64,000 nucleotides of DNA. It comes from Sedimentisphaerales bacterium (GTDB lineage Bacteria; Planctomycetota; Phycisphaerae; Sedimentisphaerales; SM23-30). How positions within the stretch are numbered: the first letter of the stretch is position 1; the number at the start of each line of letters is the position of its first letter. Shown one piece after another: positions 44,264 through 51,335 of the stretch. Both the position numbers and the translations under genes were made by a program. Where the stretch lies: assembly GCA_963666285.1 (NCBI GenBank), contig OY762711.1; one strand, written 5' to 3'. The notes under the pieces are model-generated. The model saw only the letters and a list, made by a program, of their open reading frames with translations, did not search any database and was not told the DNA's origin.

Positions 44264-46366
44264 TTAGTTTACCGTTGTTTCGTATTTCACGCCTTCCGGC
44301 ATTAGTTCAGGAACATTAACAGATACGCCATAATCTCCAGACGTTTGAGCTGTAGAATCAACAGCGACAAATGAAGTCAAATCACTCATAAGATTATAAT
44401 TTAATGCCGTTACAAGTATTTCAGAGGCGATGCTATCATTACCTGAAATTACCAATTTATTATTCAACATCTCGATCTTTTTGCGAGCCCAGATGGCAGC
44501 AATGCCGTCATGACGAGTATTGTCACTGAATTCAGCAGGAACGGTATATTCCTGATCCAGGCTACCAACCCTACCGCTGACAGTAATATTGCACTTTTTG
44601 GTATTTTTACACTTTCCGGTTATAACTACTGCCCTGCCGGCAAAAAGGTCTGGGACTTTTTGGGGCCATACTTCGGCAACTTGCATATCACCAAAATTGA
44701 TAGAAATATCTGTCAGTGCAGGATGGGCAATAGTTTCATAGAAATTATCAACTGGCTCGACCGGACTGTCATTGTGACCAATATACGATACAGCACCCTG
44801 GCCGATAGCTGCCATACGATCAAGCAGATAACGATTAGGCGAACTGCCTATACCGAAGCTGAAAATACGGCTTTCACCGAGCTTTTCACTGATGGCTTTG
44901 AGAATCTCAGCTTCATTACCAATATAACCGTCAGTCATAAATGAAACAATTCTGAAGCGTTTAGGATCATGCTCGAAATCAAGAGCCGCCTTTATTCCTT
45001 CGATCATCATAGTTCCACCACTAACATTCAATTGTTTTACATACTTTAATCCTATATTTATATTCTCCTTAGAAGCAATAACAGGTTTGCTACCAAGCCT
45101 GGAAGCATTATTACTGAACTGGATAATCTGAAAACTATCATCCGGTCCCAAACGCTTAAGAGCACGACTAATGGCTTGTTTCGAAATATCCATTGGCCAG
45201 CCATTCATACTGCCGGAACAGTCAAGTACAAAAATCATCTCCATTGGCACTCGCTTCAGCTGTGTAATGCTTTCCGGCGGATACAGCATCATAGTAAAAT
45301 AACTCCCGTTTTCATCGGAAGTTGTCATTATACCGGTTTTTACCTTGTCACCTGCAACGTTATAACGAAGTACAAAATCCTTGTTTGGGATAGTATCGTT
45401 ACGGGCGATCTGCACATTTACCCGGCTGTCAGAGTTGTATTTTTTCTCAATTATATGGCTGCTGCATACCAAATCTTCAATTTTTACACCGGCATCAATA
45501 TTAACTGCAAGTGAGATATCGTGTCCGCTTCGCTGATCCGGTTTGAGGTAATGAACTTCGCTTGACTGACTGCTGGTTCCGTCTGGTGTGCCGTGGGCAA
45601 CAGCTGCTACGCCGTCAGTTGTATGCGGAGGGTTAAAACGCGGTCCTACAACCATTGGAAAGACAAACTCATACCAACCGTCTTTATAAGCCAGAGTATT
45701 GAAATATTTTATATTGATATCGATAGCTTTGCCTGGCTCTATATTGGCAACTTTCTGGGTGAAAATATTAGGTCGCTGCTGAGTTAGCAGGCTAGCTGTA
45801 TAACCTAACCCACGAGCCTGTTCATAAATCTTCTTAGCTTCTTCTTTTTCTCTTATTACACCTCGAATAGTTCGATCCCCTATTGTCATCAAAAAATCAT
45901 TAACTGCAGCATTTTGAGGTAAAGGAAAGACATATTTCGCTTCAATCTTAACAGCATAAGGATTATGAAACTTCTGCCTTACTTCTACGGTTGCAATATA
46001 ACCCGAGACATTACCATTGACATCAGTATGCTTTAATGGCAATGGTACTTCCTCTTTTTGATCAGGCACCTTCGCAATGCAAGAGCCACTAAGAGGTACG
46101 TCTACATCGCAACGGAAAGACCCTTCACTAATATCAGTTTTTTGTATTACCCATATTTCATCAGCATCAACATTAATAACACCATCTGAACTTGCCAACT
46201 CATGCAGCTCTGCATCACTAAGCTCATTCAGCATACGTCGATTAGCACTCTCAACTGCAAACCTGGCACTTTCTTTGGCTTTATTTAATGCAGGCATAAA
46301 TAATGAAACTATAAATGCAACTATAGCAAGTACAACTAACAGCCATATAATTTTATTGGTTTTCAT
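44264..46366 (-). CDS. VIT + vWA domain protein, paralog 2, with a pilin-like N-terminal helix
   Basis: LPLKHTDV...YVFPLP (VIT); FVLDCSGSM MIDAS motif, MTDG and LMSDLTSFVAVD. Confidence 0.92.
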   Translation of the reverse strand: MKTNKIIWLLVVLAIVAFIVSLFMPALNKAKESARFAVESANRRMLNELSDAELHELASSDGVINVDADEIWVIQKTDISEGSFRCDVDVPLSGSCIAKVPDQKEEVPLPLKHTDVNGNVSGYIATVEVRQKFHNPYAVKIEAKYVFPLPQNAAVNDFLMTIGDRTIRGVIREKEEAKKIYEQARGLGYTASLLTQQRPNIFTQKVANIEPGKAIDINIKYFNTLAYKDGWYEFVFPMVVGPRFNPPHTTDGVAAVAHGTPDGTSSQSSEVHYLKPDQRSGHDISLAVNIDAGVKIEDLVCSSHIIEKKYNSDSRVNVQIARNDTIPNKDFVLRYNVAGDKVKTGIMTTSDENGSYFTMMLYPPESITQLKRVPMEMIFVLDCSGSMNGWPMDISKQAISRALKRLGPDDSFQIIQFSNNASRLGSKPVIASKENINIGLKYVKQLNVSGGTMMIEGIKAALDFEHDPKRFRIVSFMTDGYIGNEAEILKAISEKLGESRIFSFGIGSSPNRYLLDRMAAIGQGAVSYIGHNDSPVEPVDNFYETIAHPALTDISINFGDMQVAEVWPQKVPDLFAGRAVVITGKCKNTKKCNITVSGRVGSLDQEYTVPAEFSDNTRHDGIAAIWARKKIEMLNNKLVISGNDSIASEILVTALNYNLMSDLTSFVAVDSTAQTSGDYGVSVNVPELMPEGVKYETTVN

Positions 46367-46396
46367 AACTAATTCTCCTATGTTAGACTTTCAACC

Positions 46397-48943
46397 CTAA
46401 TGTACTTCCTGAACCGTTGTTTCGTATTTCACGCCTTCCGGCACTGGAACAGAAACATTGACCGTTACGCCATGTTCTCCAGAAGTAACAGTAGCAGAAT
46501 CCACGGCAACAAATGAAGTGTAGTTGCTCATAAGGTTATAGCTCAACGCAGTAGTAAGAATAGCGTTTGAAAGATCTGTTGGACCGCCGGTATTGAGCAA
46601 ATTATTCAATATCTCAATCTTTTTACGAGCCCAGATGGCAGCAATGCCGTCATGACGAGTGTTGTCACTAAATTCAGCAGGAACGGTATATTGCTGATCC
46701 AGGCTGCCAACCTTACCACCAACTGTTATATTGCAGTTCTTTGGACTTTTGCATCTGCCGGTAATAACTACCGCCCTGCCGGCGAATAGATCCGGTACTC
46801 TAGGCGGCCATACTTCGGCAACTTGCATATCGCCAAAATCGATGGATATATCTGTAAGTGCAGGATGGGCAATAGTTTCATAGAAATTATCAACCGGCTC
46901 GATCGGGCTGTCATTGTGACCAATATACGAAACAGCACCCTGACCGATAGCTGCCATACGATCAAGCAGATAACGGTTAGGCGAGCTGCCAATGCCGAAG
47001 CTGAAAATACGGCTTTCACCAAGCTTTTCACTTATGGCTTTGAGAATCTCAGCTTCATTACCAATATAACCGTCAGTCATAAACGAAACGATTCTGAAGC
47101 GTTTAGGATCATGCTCAAAGTCCAGAGCTGCTTTGATACCTTCAATCATCATTGTTCCGCCGCCGCCATGAAGGCCCTCAAGATAGGTAAGCCCTTTTTC
47201 TATATTCTCTTGAGTTGCTTCGATTGGTTTGGGACCAAGCTGAGAAGCATTATTGCTGAATCTAATGATCTGGAAGCTGTCATCCGGTCCGAGGCGTTTC
47301 AGGGCACGGTTAATGGCTTTCTTTGACATTTCAATAGGAAAACCATTCATACTGCCGGAACAGTCAAGTACAAAAATCATTTCCATTGGTACCCGTTTGA
47401 GCTGGGAGATACTTTCCGGAGGATACAACATCATAGTGAAGTAACTTCCGTTATCGTCAGTAGTTGTCATAATGCCGGTTTTTACCTTATTGCCGGCAAC
47501 CTTATAACGAAGTACAAAATCCTTGTTTGGGATAGTATCGTTACGGGCGATCTGCACATTTACCCGGCTGTCAGAGTTGTATTTTTTCTCAATTATATGG
47601 CTGCTGCATTCCAGATCTTCAATCTTTACGCCGGCGTCAATATTAACTGCGAGCGAGATATCATGTCCGCTTCGCTGGTCCGGTTTGAGGTAATGGACCT
47701 CGGTTGACTGTCCGCTGGTACCGTCTGGTGTGCCGTGGGCAACTGCCGCTATGCCGTCAGTTGTATGCGGAGGGTTAAAACGCGGTCCTACAACCATTGG
47801 AAAGACAAATTCATACCAGCCGTCTTTATAAGCCAGGGTATTGAAATATTTTATATTGATATCGATAGCTTTGCCCGGCTCTATATTGGCAACTTTTTGG
47901 GTGAAGATATTAGGCCGCTGCTGGGTTAGCAGGCTGGCCACATGGCCCCGGCTGCGGGCGGCTTCGTATATTTGTTTGGCTTCTTCCTTTTCACGGATAA
48001 CGCCTCGGATTGTGCGGTCACCAACGGTCATAAGAAAGTCGTTTACCGCAGCATTCTGAGGCAGCGGAAAGACATAGCGTGCCTCTATCTTGGTATCGTA
48101 TGGATTGTGAAACTGCTGAACAACATTTACGGTTGCTATATAACCGGCGATATTGCCTGTAACATCTGTATGCTTAAGCGGTAACGGCACTTCCTCGGGA
48201 TTATCAGGCAGCTTAACAACACAACAGCCGCTGACAGGAGTATTATCGTCTACCGGCACTACCGATTTGGCAGTATCAACTTTAGCTATAACCCATAGCT
48301 CATCGGCATTGAAGTTGTTCAAAACAATTTGATTATTGATTGGTGCTTTCCCAAAAGAATACATCTGAGCCATCACACCACCATCCATACCACTAACGTC
48401 ATACCCAACAATACCCTGGCCAGCTGCGATAGGTTTTGCACTCCCCTTTTCAACAGTTGGATATTCTATTTTTTCTACTGGAGGAATTAGATCTTTATCA
48501 ACGGCCATTAAGTGCATTGTAACATTATGGTCCGCATTTCTGGATTTTTCATGCTGAATCTGCCATAACAACGCCTGCGAATACATATTTCTAAGGTATT
48601 TTGCCTGTTCGTTATAAGGGTCTACAGAAAGCAAACGATCTATAGTGTCAATAGCAGCTTGAAACCTTCTTTGCTCTGCAAACTTATTAGCAGTATGGAA
48701 TAAAGTACTTATAACCTGTACTTCTTGAGCTGCTTCTCTAGCTGAATCTCTGGTTTTATCTATTGCTTCAGTATCAGAACTCCCATGTTCATCAGAGGTG
48801 CCTCCCTGATAAGCAGCAGTATCTCCAGGGGCTGAGACGGTACTATTAATATCATTGCCACAGCCTTGAATAAGCAAGAATGCAGGTATTGCCAGCAATG
48901 ATAATAATAATCCAGTAAAAATTGATTTTCTTAGGTTAAACAT
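46397..48943 (-). CDS. VIT + vWA domain lipoprotein, paralog 1, with an N-terminal TPR-like segment
   Basis: IQGC lipobox and the same VIT and DCSGS/TDG motifs as paralog 2. Confidence 0.92.
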   Translation of the reverse strand: MFNLRKSIFTGLLLSLLAIPAFLLIQGCGNDINSTVSAPGDTAAYQGGTSDEHGSSDTEAIDKTRDSAREAAQEVQVISTLFHTANKFAEQRRFQAAIDTIDRLLSVDPYNEQAKYLRNMYSQALLWQIQHEKSRNADHNVTMHLMAVDKDLIPPVEKIEYPTVEKGSAKPIAAGQGIVGYDVSGMDGGVMAQMYSFGKAPINNQIVLNNFNADELWVIAKVDTAKSVVPVDDNTPVSGCCVVKLPDNPEEVPLPLKHTDVTGNIAGYIATVNVVQQFHNPYDTKIEARYVFPLPQNAAVNDFLMTVGDRTIRGVIREKEEAKQIYEAARSRGHVASLLTQQRPNIFTQKVANIEPGKAIDINIKYFNTLAYKDGWYEFVFPMVVGPRFNPPHTTDGIAAVAHGTPDGTSGQSTEVHYLKPDQRSGHDISLAVNIDAGVKIEDLECSSHIIEKKYNSDSRVNVQIARNDTIPNKDFVLRYKVAGNKVKTGIMTTTDDNGSYFTMMLYPPESISQLKRVPMEMIFVLDCSGSMNGFPIEMSKKAINRALKRLGPDDSFQIIRFSNNASQLGPKPIEATQENIEKGLTYLEGLHGGGGTMMIEGIKAALDFEHDPKRFRIVSFMTDGYIGNEAEILKAISEKLGESRIFSFGIGSSPNRYLLDRMAAIGQGAVSYIGHNDSPIEPVDNFYETIAHPALTDISIDFGDMQVAEVWPPRVPDLFAGRAVVITGRCKSPKNCNITVGGKVGSLDQQYTVPAEFSDNTRHDGIAAIWARKKIEILNNLLNTGGPTDLSNAILTTALSYNLMSNYTSFVAVDSATVTSGEHGVTVNVSVPVPEGVKYETTVQEVH

Positions 48944-48991
48944 CTTAAACTCCGAATATTGTAATTGTCTATGTTTTAATGTCTTATAATA

Positions 48992-49449
48992 TTAGTCACG
49001 ATCGGTAAGCCGGTAAGTCATATCAGCTTTTACCTTGTTTCCTTTGGCATCTGCGATGACAACCGGTGTAATTTCGAACTCCGGAGTCTGGTCGCCGGAA
49101 ATCATAAAGTGGAGGCGGGCACATCTGAACTTACCGGAAGGTAATGATTTATCGAGATTGAAAGCGGCAAGTATGATTCTGCCATGATTAAGAGCCTTTG
49201 GGTCGTAATAGCCCGGAGCTTTGAAAGCCTCGCAGTCGCCGCCTTCAACGCCGGAAAGCTTTGCAATACCTGATGTTACCTTAAGTTCGAACTGGTATGC
49301 CGCGATAGACTTATCAGCGGAATCGATTATGATATCGACAGGTACAAACCTGACATTGCTGAAGTCAGCCTGCGGTTCAAGAGCTTTGCCGAAACTGTAT
49401 GTAAGTGCGGTAAAACAAAGGGTTAATATAATAATTGTCATTTTGTTCT
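48992..49449 (-). CDS. Exon 2 of a secreted cohesin-like protein; exon 1 is ATGA at 50172-50169 and the spliced N-terminus is MKNKMTIIILTLCF
   Basis: Signal peptide followed by VPVDIIIDSADKSIAAYQFELK...ARLHF, a cohesin-like beta pattern; the frame is restored exactly by removing the intron. Confidence 0.75.
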
Positions 49450-50168
49450 GTCGAGTAGGCATGTCGCCTCCTTTCATTAATTTAACAAATTCTGAGTTTC
49501 ATTATATTTTGTGCAAGGAAACGCATGCCCCTCACAGAACCGGACTTGAAGATTTCCCTCATCCGGCTCTTCATTAATGCTCACTTTGACGGCTACATAA
49601 GGCAAAGTAATGTGCCTTGTAGAAGTCTCCGATAGAAGACGCTGTGGAACGTTCATGGTTTCTTCCAGTTCAGTGCCTGGCCAATATCCTGTTTCGCCTT
49701 TACACATTAATGCTGACCCCTTCGAGTGCCTCAAACTTCGAAACTCAACAGGCATTACCCTGTTTACTCCTCTACTATGAGTCAGTCCGACTACCAAAAT
49801 GCCATACGGCCGCGTCACGGTTTCAGCTCCTTGGCCGCTTCCTTTCGGAGCACTTCGGTTCTCCCAAGTTCCAATGCAGTCAGTTCGTTTGCCCGCTACG
49901 GACTCAGACCCCGGCTCGTCGATATATGCTCGCCGTATTTCGCATATATCGATATTGGCTTCAGGCATATGAAAACCCTGGCCCGGATGCGATAAGGAAT
50001 AATTTCGGGGCTCAACACCTTCACTTGCGTTGTGGCTGACAAACTCCTTTCCCGGGGCTTCGTACAGTTCGTTACCTCTCTGCACGCCCGGTGCTGTAAT
50101 GGGCGGGTGGCTAGCCCTTACCCATGCCGGATTGGCCGGCTTGACTACATTAGCTTCGCTTGGCGCTC
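49450..50168 (-). mobile_element. Group II intron (719 nt) without an intron-encoded reverse transcriptase
   Basis: Domain V GAGCCGGATGAGGGAAATCTTCAAGTCCGGTTC (49569-49537); domain VI with the branch A 7 nt from the 3' end (CCTACTCGAC); 5' end GAGCG; EBS1 TCATAT complementary to exon ATATGA; short domain IV. Confidence 0.93.
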
Positions 50169-50188
50169 TCATATTATTATCCTTCAAT

Positions 50189-50680
50189 TTAATTTATAAT
50201 CATTGCCAGCTGAGAGTTTAACCGGGCAGCAGCCGCCTGGTCCAGGTTGTTTATCTCAACTGCTTTATTGGCAACTATTTGCACATCAGTAATAGAAAGA
50301 TTATTGTCGTTGTTATAATCCCATTTCCGGTCGTATATGCCCTTGTCACGGATATGGATAGCGAGAGTCATAGCATCGAGTATATCTACACTTCCATCGC
50401 GGTTAACATCCTGCGGGGCAAAGGTTTGGGAATTGTGTAATACAAAGAAAGCCGATATAGCGACAAGCACAATTGCCGCGGCATATCGTAAATAATGTAT
50501 TAGAGGAGATTTACGCCGTTTGTTGAAAGCATCAAAATGAGCTCTGGCTCCCTCTAAAACAGCTCTATCAACATCAAGCGGAAGTTGAGAATCAGTTGTA
50601 AACTCTTTTTTCAATTCGAGTTGCAACTCATCTGATAGTTCCGGGATATCATCAAAATTGTTAATATTATTGTTATCCAT
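50189..50680 (-). CDS. Putative anti-sigma factor: cytoplasmic N-terminus, one TM helix, extracytoplasmic dockerin-like domain
   Basis: Directly follows the ECF sigma gene; YAAAIVLVAISAFFVL TM; DVNRDGSVDILDA...DYNNDNNLSITDV duplicated Ca-binding loops. Confidence 0.78.
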   Translation of the reverse strand: MDNNNINNFDDIPELSDELQLELKKEFTTDSQLPLDVDRAVLEGARAHFDAFNKRRKSPLIHYLRYAAAIVLVAISAFFVLHNSQTFAPQDVNRDGSVDILDAMTLAIHIRDKGIYDRKWDYNNDNNLSITDVQIVANKAVEINNLDQAAAARLNSQLAMIIN

Positions 50681-50700
50681 GGTTTATGGTCTCCGTATAT

Positions 50701-50729
50701 TTAGACCGCAGGTGAGTAAAATAGTTTCA
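50701..50729 (-). promoter_or_regulatory. ECF (sigmaE-like) promoter upstream of the anti-sigma gene
   Basis: The minus strand reads TGAAACT-N16-GTCTAA. Confidence 0.5.
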
Positions 50730-50744
50730 GAAAAATAAGAATAA

Positions 50745-51335
50745 TTACAAGAATAGTAATATCAAAGCTTTAAGGTCACGGATATTTTTAATAGCAGGTG
50801 AATCTTTAAGTTTTTTGAGAGTTCGATAATAAGTTGTCTTCACACTGCTTTCGGATATCTCAATCGCGGAAGCTATCTCGGCGAGTGTCATATCATCAAC
50901 GAACCGCATAAGGAGTATATGCCGCTGGGTATCGGATAGGTTGTCAAGAAGAGAAGCGAGATGTCGTCGCATTTCGTCTTGCGGCGTTTCGCCAATGGGT
51001 AAAGACGTATCAGGGATGTCAAGCGGCAGGTCAACGGATGAGTACCGCCGCTTACGTTCCTGCTGACGGATGACAGTATTCCGTACTGCCGGATACAAAA
51101 AAGATTTCATGCTGGAAGTAAGCGAAAAACCTGGAAACCGCGTATAAAACCACGTAAAGACCTCCTGGCAGACATCAGCTGCAATATTTTCGTCTCTATT
51201 GGCCAAACGCCAGGCAAGCTGGAAGGTCCAGTTTTTGTATCTCAGATATATACGCTCAAACCCTGCGACATCACCTGAATTAGCAATGGCAATATCGGTC
51301 TGGTCCTGAGCGTTAATATTGGAAGCATCTAACAT
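50745..51335 (-). CDS. ECF RNA polymerase sigma factor
   Basis: GDVAGFERIYLRY, AADVCQEVF (region 2) and LAEIASAIEISESSVKT (region 4). Confidence 0.92.
   Translation of the reverse strand: MLDASNINAQDQTDIAIANSGDVAGFERIYLRYKNWTFQLAWRLANRDENIAADVCQEVFTWFYTRFPGFSLTSSMKSFLYPAVRNTVIRQQERKRRYSSVDLPLDIPDTSLPIGETPQDEMRRHLASLLDNLSDTQRHILLMRFVDDMTLAEIASAIEISESSVKTTYYRTLKKLKDSPAIKNIRDLKALILLFL

Follow-up and report, generated by a model that had tools for sequence, protein, structure and literature searches.

The window analysed here is a stretch of 64,000 nucleotides (nt) from a Sedimentisphaerales bacterium of the Planctomycetota (assembly GCA_963666285.1, contig OY762711.1), and the element in question, which we name W8, is the window's own copy of a group II intron that lacks an open reading frame (ORF) for an intron-encoded protein, measures 719 nt and occupies positions 50168-49450 of the minus strand, from 5' GAGCG to 3' ...CTACTCGAC. 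W8 lies one base behind the start codon of its host gene, and the reading frame that enters it from that codon stays open through the ribozyme. The host operon (44264-51335, minus strand) encodes an ECF-type sigma factor (196 amino acids, aa), a 163-aa protein with a Dockerin_1 domain, the intron-bearing 153-aa secreted protein and then paralogous VIT+VWA proteins (848 and 700 aa). The gene for the 163-aa protein ends at 50189, a host Shine-Dalgarno (SD)-like GAAGGA (50180..50185) lies 7 nt before the host ATG, and this ATG with the A behind it (50169..50172) forms the last four bases of exon 1. Exon 2 (48992..49449) completes a spliced product MKNKMTIIILTLCF... of 153 aa, which has a signal-peptide-like N-terminus and matches no Pfam family. 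These borders replace the ones drawn in a sequence-only reading of the window: the flanks of eight copies, together with an intron-free orthologue, place the end of exon 1 at A 50169 (ATGA) and the beginning of exon 2 at 49449.

Two Rfam families match W8. RF02005 (group-II-D1D4-6) covers 50135-49899 in domain I (D1) with 115.9 bits against a gathering score of 49 (E 4e-32, model positions 1-225 of 225), and RF00029 (domains V and VI, D5 and D6) covers 49571-49450 with 55.5 bits against a gathering score of 40; the domain I-IV architecture and the catalytic AGC triad are both present. D5 (49537..49569, GAGCCGG...CCGGUUC with the triad) was located with RF00029 and plastid D5 models, and D6 (49450..49536), from the D5-D6 fold and consensus pairs, forms a hairpin of unusual length in which the branch-point A at 49456 is bulged. 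This unpaired A stands 7 nt from the 3' end, ...CUACUCGAC, in keeping with a group II 3' terminus, while the 5' end GAGCG departs once from GUGYG; the corresponding pentamer is GUGCG or GUGUG in relatives from other genomes. The T-ATGA at the end of exon 1 is the probable intron-binding site IBS1, and a candidate for its partner, the exon-binding site EBS1, is UCAUA at 49776..49780, which is complementary to the target UAUGA. In D1 the loop sequence UCCUU, set against AAGGA in the targets, makes a candidate EBS2, but the spacing to ATGA varies from 5 to 7 nt and any gene start has an SD. In domain IV (D4), an ATG in the host frame (49654..49656, reading ...TELEETMNVPQRLLSE) is the relic start codon of a lost intron-encoded protein; the region aligns with the N-terminal MPDTELEV... 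of full-length relatives.

The host frame and its end in domain VI

Read in the phase of the host ATG at 50172, the minus strand is free of stops for 231 sense codons (49480..50172), a translation of domains I to VI that ends at the TAA at 49479-49477; a TTG upstream at 50187 belongs to the same ORF. The other two forward frames contain 15 (+1) and 20 (+2) stops and the reverse frames 5, 6 and 9. From base composition one expects 0.052 stops per codon, which puts the probability of a stop-free frame at ~4e-6; dinucleotide-preserving shuffles have 11.1 stops on average and were stop-free in 2 of 200,000 cases, and for the first 450 nt of W8 none of 2000 shuffles was as stop-free. The sequence-only reading had described this frame and roughly estimated a chance probability of 1e-4 to 1e-5; the stop counts and the simulations uphold both, and we regard the stop-free frame as real and non-random.

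That reading had also seen in the frame a translated ribozyme and no reverse transcriptase (RT), and this is what we find. The 231-aa peptide matches no Pfam family, RT included, although gene callers annotate it as a hypothetical protein (P0001, 7 member sequences). Variable sites are spread evenly over the codon positions (54, 51 and 68 of ~194 each), and the codons that differ between W8 and a relative on contig L166 are synonymous in 25 cases and nonsynonymous in 60 (~1:2.4), so that the peptide shows no constraint at the amino-acid level.

The frame is closed in all eight copies by stops at codons 232 and 233, which in W8 form a tandem in-frame TAA-TGA (49474..49479, minus strand, the TGA at 49476-49474). 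An ATG at 49477-49475 overlaps the TAA, is in phase with the downstream gene and reads MKGGDMPTRQNKMT...; the TAATG overlap of the sequence-only reading thus exists as described, inside the intron. The same reading had put the stop in the loop of D6. The domain stands, the simple loop does not, for the frame stops within the AU-rich distal portion of the long D6 hairpin. Fifteen nucleotides beyond this stop there is a second ATG in exon-2 phase (49460..49462, reading MPTRQ and then exon 2), which is better conserved than the TAATG one and is preceded by an intron-borne SD, AAAGGAGG (49467..49474). Both non-exon-2 phases carry stops in this distal stretch.

Both the SD and the second ATG are predicted to be buried in D6. 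The D5-D6 segment folds with -48.8 kcal/mol (z -5.9), none of 200 shuffles being as stable, and a D6 consensus of 21 sequences has 18 pairs, four of them with compensatory changes, in which AAAGGAGG pairs with the UUUCCUU strand (columns 67-72 with 15-20) and ATG 49462 is likewise paired. The segment therefore has the layout of a pair of translationally coupled genes: a stop that overlaps a start or lies 15 nt from it, an SD, and a start masked by predicted structure. The proposal that exon 2 is reached by re-initiation keeps this much, a stop 15 nt before an SD and ATG predicted to be buried in D6; on this proposal the restart would depend on translation of the frame. Of the 56 distinct D6 tails in the wider family, 43 contain an ATG in phase (54 of all 78 tails), and 39 of the ATG-bearing tails have an SD-like motif too.

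A subgroup from Methanogaster/Methanobacteriota differs at this point. On eleven contigs of archaeal metagenome-assembled genomes (MAGs; L065, L068, L069, L083, L084, L093, L097, L101, L102, L105 and L108) the 3' strand of D6 reads CTACTTGAC, with the result that an in-frame TGA follows the in-phase ATG before the 3' splice site is reached, and read-out into exon 2 is blocked.

Copies and full-length relatives in the genome

The genome (6.35 Mb, 4 contigs) contains eight copies of W8 with 0-3 differences and the same ends at different loci. Comparison of their flanks shows all eight to be inserted after T-ATG-A with an A next (ATGA^A); AAGG is found at most 16 nt upstream of the ATG in seven, and the eighth has GAAGAGAA. 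As a mobile element, W8 has amplified recently, and its insertion point is one base behind start codons. When the intron is removed in silico, six of the eight sites yield ORFs of 153-515 aa with signal-peptide-like or prepilin-like N-termini (e.g. MKKRGFTLIELL), and the remaining two yield ORFs of only 5 and 86 aa. An SD-like motif together with an ORF of at least 120 codons occurs at only 337 of the 6259 genomic TATGAA sites, so that six of eight copies on gene starts is far above chance (binomial ~7e-7). The orthologue of the window's own host gene was not found in three congeners with the query used; we took instead the host gene of copy 6, whose orthologue in the congener G003 has no intron and reads ...AAGGAA-N9-ATGAAG..., confirming the ATGA|AG junction. 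One copy (L002, C1:5266367-5267085, minus strand) has a frame of no more than 5 codons behind it and lies in a short tract of GAAGGATGA repeats, which has the look of a mimic of the target (SD and ATGA) and not of a gene start.

Two full-length relatives reside in the same genome, FL_A (C1:5395200-5397330, minus strand) and FL_B (C1:910660-912800, plus strand). FL_B encodes a 443-aa protein with an RVT_1 domain (E 7e-36) and the motif YADD; in FL_A, YADN replaces the catalytic YADD. The RT of such full-length relatives presumably mobilises W8 in trans. FL_B sits after AAGA, not ATGA, and has no obvious gene downstream. A diverged ORF-less variant, OL_var, is present as a single copy (C1:1613500-1614260, plus strand) with no ORF downstream of its site. 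With a 5' part like that of FL_A (89% identity to W8) and a 3' part like that of W8 (95-96%), OL_var may be a recombinant. A stretch of 71 nt in D3/D4 is deleted from it, and this 71-nt skip recurs as a joint in contigs of the public runs X1 and X3. The open variant thus amounts to eight copies, six of them on real gene starts, and its closest stop-bearing variant, OL_var, to a single copy at a non-genic site.

The frame among relatives

The sequence-only reading held that selection keeps ribosomes running through the intron, and relatives bear on this claim in both directions. Two censuses were made. One covered species genomes by a D5 pattern (80 of 115 stretches examined) and gave 27 introns with a recognisable 5' end, 14 of them after ATGA; the other covered metagenome contigs with a W8-type D5/D6 junction (34 stretches) and gave nine complete ORF-less introns, eight after ATGA and one after ATGG.

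A good deal weighs against a frame held open by selection. Close relatives are not free of stops: in the same genome, FL_A (86% identical) and OL_var (89-96%) stop at codons 6 and 32, FL_A having eight stops within the first 450 nt of the frame, and the strong form of the claim, a conserved frame, fails on them. No ORF-less intron was open from the host ATG, either among the nine from metagenomes or among seven from the genome census; their first stops fall at codons 10-53, and L067 alone is open among the 27 genome-census introns with a 5' end. Three further genomes of the order contributed six introns inserted after ATGA, all closed at codons 31-52. When the first 450 nt were shuffled in 29 dereplicated introns, P was below 0.01 for five (W8, L054, L067, L078 and L120) and above 0.1, with no stop depletion, for 18. 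Part of the improbability is inherited, since many relatives have few stops in ribozyme codons ~60-150. The eight copies are near identical and therefore allow no test within the family, and the outgroups give an ambiguous direction of change at codons 6 and 32, where their base differs both from that of W8 and from that of the FL_A/OL_var pair, which differ from each other as well. At the restart site, the TAATG overlap turned out not to be conserved, close relatives having TGA or TAA without an overlapping ATG, and the 4 nt between SD and ATG in D6 are a short spacing. The one metatranscriptome among four public runs contains only relatives of 85-90% identity, and the assembled contigs of the four runs, which break at intron ends, contain no intron-skipping joint and no transcript of the organism, a result that is neutral as to splicing and translation. 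Finally, the open relatives to which we now turn (P0002 and the proteins of 195 and 650 aa) come from gene-call databases, which list only open frames and hence carry an ascertainment bias.

On the other side, a protein search with the 231-aa peptide gave 254 matches among predicted proteins. One of them, P0002 (metagenome, 230 aa, 70% identity), starts with MRAP... and ends with ...LLN as W8 does, with one gap of 1 aa; its DNA did not turn up in the metagenome census. At this divergence the probability of meeting no stop in the absence of stop avoidance is 0.031 when the 67 changed codons are taken as given and 0.021 in 20,000 free simulations. An expectation that indels would come in threes is thus borne out in P0002, by one 3-nt indel.

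Among the matches listed there are also ~40 clusters of 195 aa, which begin with an internal ATG and run to the same place in D6. At the DNA level they belong to a sister clade of ORF-less introns, 80% identical to W8 and with the same D4 deletion; since the deletion is common to both, their 20% divergence arose after the loss of the RT. In this clade the host frame stops at codon 31, GGAGG(T/C)-N8-ATG or GTG follows (with a TGATG overlap in one member), and the 195-codon frame that begins there is closed by a TGA or TAA lying 14 nt upstream of the D6 ATG. What separates W8 from the sister clade, and fuses the two frames into one, is a set of compensatory changes in a single D1 helix together with two small indels. 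The DNA-pattern censuses show the 195-codon frame intact in eight of 12 lineages (L110, L166, L172, L178, L179, L191, L182 and L194) and broken in L190, L162, L174 and L180, and likewise in OL_var. L191 and L194 have in-frame deletions of 15 and 21 nt, and in L182 a -1 shift is compensated by a +1.

Across 14 sequences and 195 codon columns, phases 0, 1 and 2 have 5, 26 and 27 sites at which a stop is polymorphic, and 5, 14 and 13 if only stops present in at most three sequences are counted (binomial P ~0.03); four of the five phase-0 sites fall in three sequences with a common large insertion. Derived stops are therefore rarer in phase 0 among the clade members, which together with P0002 speaks for selection on the frame, and the 16 censused ORF-less relatives, none of them open, speak against it. 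On this comparison stop avoidance would be lineage-specific, with moderate support for selection.

Full-length relatives use the host frame in another manner. L067, a full-length intron after ATGA in a Candidatus Syntrophoarchaeum MAG, has a 652-codon frame from the host ATG through D1-D3, the RT (YADD), D5 and D6, closed by a TGA in overlap with the D6 ATG. Residues 1-185, the part derived from the ribozyme, have matches in 68 database proteins, with identities as low as 42%; 63 of the proteins contain RVT_1 and 42 have at least 600 aa. These are gene calls, in which closed frames are invisible. Six RT-bearing matches were followed to their ends: two reach the same place in D6, two get as far as its 5' strand and two finish before D5. 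An in-frame ORF that encodes the intron protein is thus a property of L067/P0121 and of 63 of the 68 database relatives, and not of W8. A related arrangement occurs in six of 19 full-length bacterial relatives, several of them near-duplicates, where an ORF of at least 100 codons runs through D1-D3 and ends at most 30 nt from the RT start (L019, L056, L062, L105, L119 and L125; 100-152 codons, with a TAATG overlap in L056). This hints that translation of the RT may be coupled to the upstream frame in these introns. Among 618 candidates no long fused RT protein matched the W8 peptide, which is weak evidence.

Proposed ribosome run-through, its rivals and known systems

Because W8 is inserted one base behind the start, every ribosome that starts at the host ATG of an unspliced RNA enters the intron. 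We propose that in the W8 lineage the frame so entered has been kept stop-free, so that ribosomes would cross D1 to D6 and, in passing, unwind the long D6 hairpin that hides AAAGGAGG and the ATG. Terminating at UAA-UGA, 15 nt upstream of the D6 ATG, they could then re-initiate in exon-2 phase, and the unspliced route would give a host protein beginning MPTRQ... or MKGGDMPTRQ... instead of MK.... The rest of the operon (the small secreted protein and the two VIT-VWA genes) would stay translated without splicing, and transcripts that fold before ribosomes load would splice and supply mobile intron RNA. Copies harmless to the host would be purged less, which would fit eight open copies against the single OL_var at a site without a gene. 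Under this proposal, FL_A and OL_var would represent the conventional answer, an early stop, and W8, P0002, the two-step sister clade and the archaeal clade would represent run-through. We infer translation of the frame, re-initiation and selection through weaker purging of host-friendly copies from the layout and its comparison; the avoidance of polarity and a role of translation as a splicing switch, both suggested by the sequence-only reading, would be further consequences. The selective agent might be polarity, RNA stability or coupling. Lineage-level selection for run-through and re-initiation seems to us evenly poised between right and wrong.

The strongest rival is chance combined with inheritance, according to which a stop-poor phase of the ribozyme was aligned with the host ATG by a few indels and substitutions, the variant then amplified for unrelated reasons, and the open frame would be without function. 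The stop-poor codons ~60-150, open in many relatives whatever their context, are what it would predict, as is the failure of all 16 censused ORF-less relatives to be open from the host ATG; FL_A and OL_var have the same indel pattern as W8 and yet carry stops; the eight copies are one recent burst and hence one observation; and very many windows were screened, among which an event of 1e-5 can appear. Even when the stop-poor core is granted, however, ~140 more codons and two coincidences of phase are still needed (estimated at ~1e-4). The frame ends exactly before a buried restart site, P0002 repeats the whole layout at 70% identity (P 0.02-0.03), derived stops are depleted in phase 0, and a layout spanning the whole intron recurs in distant archaeal relatives. 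With these on the other side, we consider chance and inheritance unlikely.

A second alternative takes the frame as a relic of RT expression: an upstream D1-D3 frame once coupled or fused to the RT, as in the "core creep" of organelles, persists by inertia and would have no present use. The relic RT start (ATG 49656) and ~20 N-terminal codons are indeed in frame 0, the D1-D3 ORFs of the six full-length relatives end close to their RT starts, and in archaeal relatives the RT is fused to the D1-D3 frame. Against inertia, the frame is still open after W8 and the 195-codon clade diverged by 20% without an RT, and it also spans the D4 remnant, D5 and D6 up to the restart site, which RT expression does not need. 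In this genome the RT frame of the full-length copies stands alone and the frames upstream of it are closed, and the fused RT protein sought among the 618 candidates is missing, for what little that is worth. We judge this alternative distinctly improbable; as a sole explanation, the RT-fusion relic is weakened by the D4 deletion common to W8 and its sister clade. That an ordinary protein-coding gene was overprinted on the ribozyme, as the length of the frame, its start codon with a ribosome-binding site (RBS) and the P0001 annotation might suggest, is scarcely credible in view of the missing Pfam family, the even codon-position variation and the ~1:2.4 ratio reported above, of D5 changes that track RNA pairing and are radical at the protein level, and of one relative that reads D5 in another phase after a compensated frameshift.

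Returning to run-through, a wider version would cover the whole start-codon intron family, as one that evolved for translation-through, its full-length archaeal members making an RT fused from the host start and restarting in D6. We offer this version tentatively and lean slightly towards doubting it. If it were true, each transcript would be either translated, as a silent passenger, or folded and spliced, as a mobile element, with W8 as the ORF-less extreme, and expression of the host gene would be independent of splicing.

Bacterial group II introns at start and stop codons are known from the clade of Michel et al. 2007, with members such as Avi.groEL and EcKTE56.groEL (Gomes et al. 2025, PMC12584367). 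W8 resembles this IIB1 clade in its insertion after ATG-A, seen in 8/8 copies. All members of the clade are described as having an insertion of 300-700 nt at the base of domain I and housekeeping genes as hosts (PMC12584367), whereas W8 totals 719 nt, has a D1 match that sets in 33 nt from its 5' end, and occupies genes for secreted or membrane proteins. Lacking the 300-700-nt insertion, W8 is set apart by the clade's own description, and we have not filed it there.

Intron-encoded proteins of bacteria are described as lying within intron loops with their own signals, and those of organelles as fused to the 5' exon (Edgell et al. 2011, PMC3073962). Like the organellar fusions, the frame of W8 runs from the 5' exon through the ribozyme, and that of L067 has the RT within it; unlike them, W8 is prokaryotic and without an RT, and its frame leads up to a restart site of the host protein and not to the end of an intron-encoded one. 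Most group I introns have an in-frame stop just inside the intron that keeps ribosomes out, e.g. T4 td (PMC3073962). Bacterial and phage group I introns therefore face the same problem, transcription coupled to translation at the 5' splice site, and have the opposite solution; the codon-6-stop relatives of W8 follow this conventional, group I-like pattern. Termination-reinitiation coupling, in turn, is known at overlapping or close stop and start codons such as ATGA and TAATG (PMC10666635). W8 shares with such pairs the TAATG overlap or 15-nt gap, the SD and the structure-masked restart, and differs from them in that its upstream "gene" is a ribozyme without protein constraint and the masking helix is the branch-point domain.

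Prokaryotic introns are reported to keep ribosomes out by early stops, masked RBSs and extragenic insertion, and the reading of ribosomes into introns is presented as a main cost that limits introns under coupled transcription and translation (PMC3073962; bioRxiv 10.1101/2024.12.10.627823). For unspliced archaeal group II introns, too, such read-into is treated as a cost, in a source whose accessible text makes no mention of start codons or in-frame layouts (bioRxiv 10.1101/2024.12.10.627823). The accessible text of Zimmerly and Semper 2015 likewise has no start-codon or in-frame wording, and in the accessible full-text literature, supplements aside, we found no prokaryotic group II intron with a stop-free host frame and a restart site. 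What is new here is the stop in distal D6, the burial of an SD and ATG with compensatory changes, and the absence of constraint on the peptide. If the proposal is true, a start-codon intron that passes ribosomes on to its host gene is a different answer to the cost of read-into; it would explain multiplication inside genes (six of eight copies on real gene starts) and would provide a natural system for the competition between translation and ribozyme folding. It also suggests a compact "pass-through" insertion cassette for engineering.

Such frames call for caution in annotation, as they are called hypothetical proteins, 650-aa "reverse transcriptases" with ribozyme-derived N-termini, or fusions with host proteins. 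Three gene calls named as a glycosyltransferase, a DUF362 protein and a tRNA-synthetase-like protein (P0132, P0151 and P0184) contain a long translated intron ribozyme, host-enzyme annotation artefacts of a kind to which stop-free frames give rise. In a Methanophagales MAG (L080:327-984), a single strand has two domain V matches at a distance of 616 nt, which suggests tandem or nested ORF-less introns.

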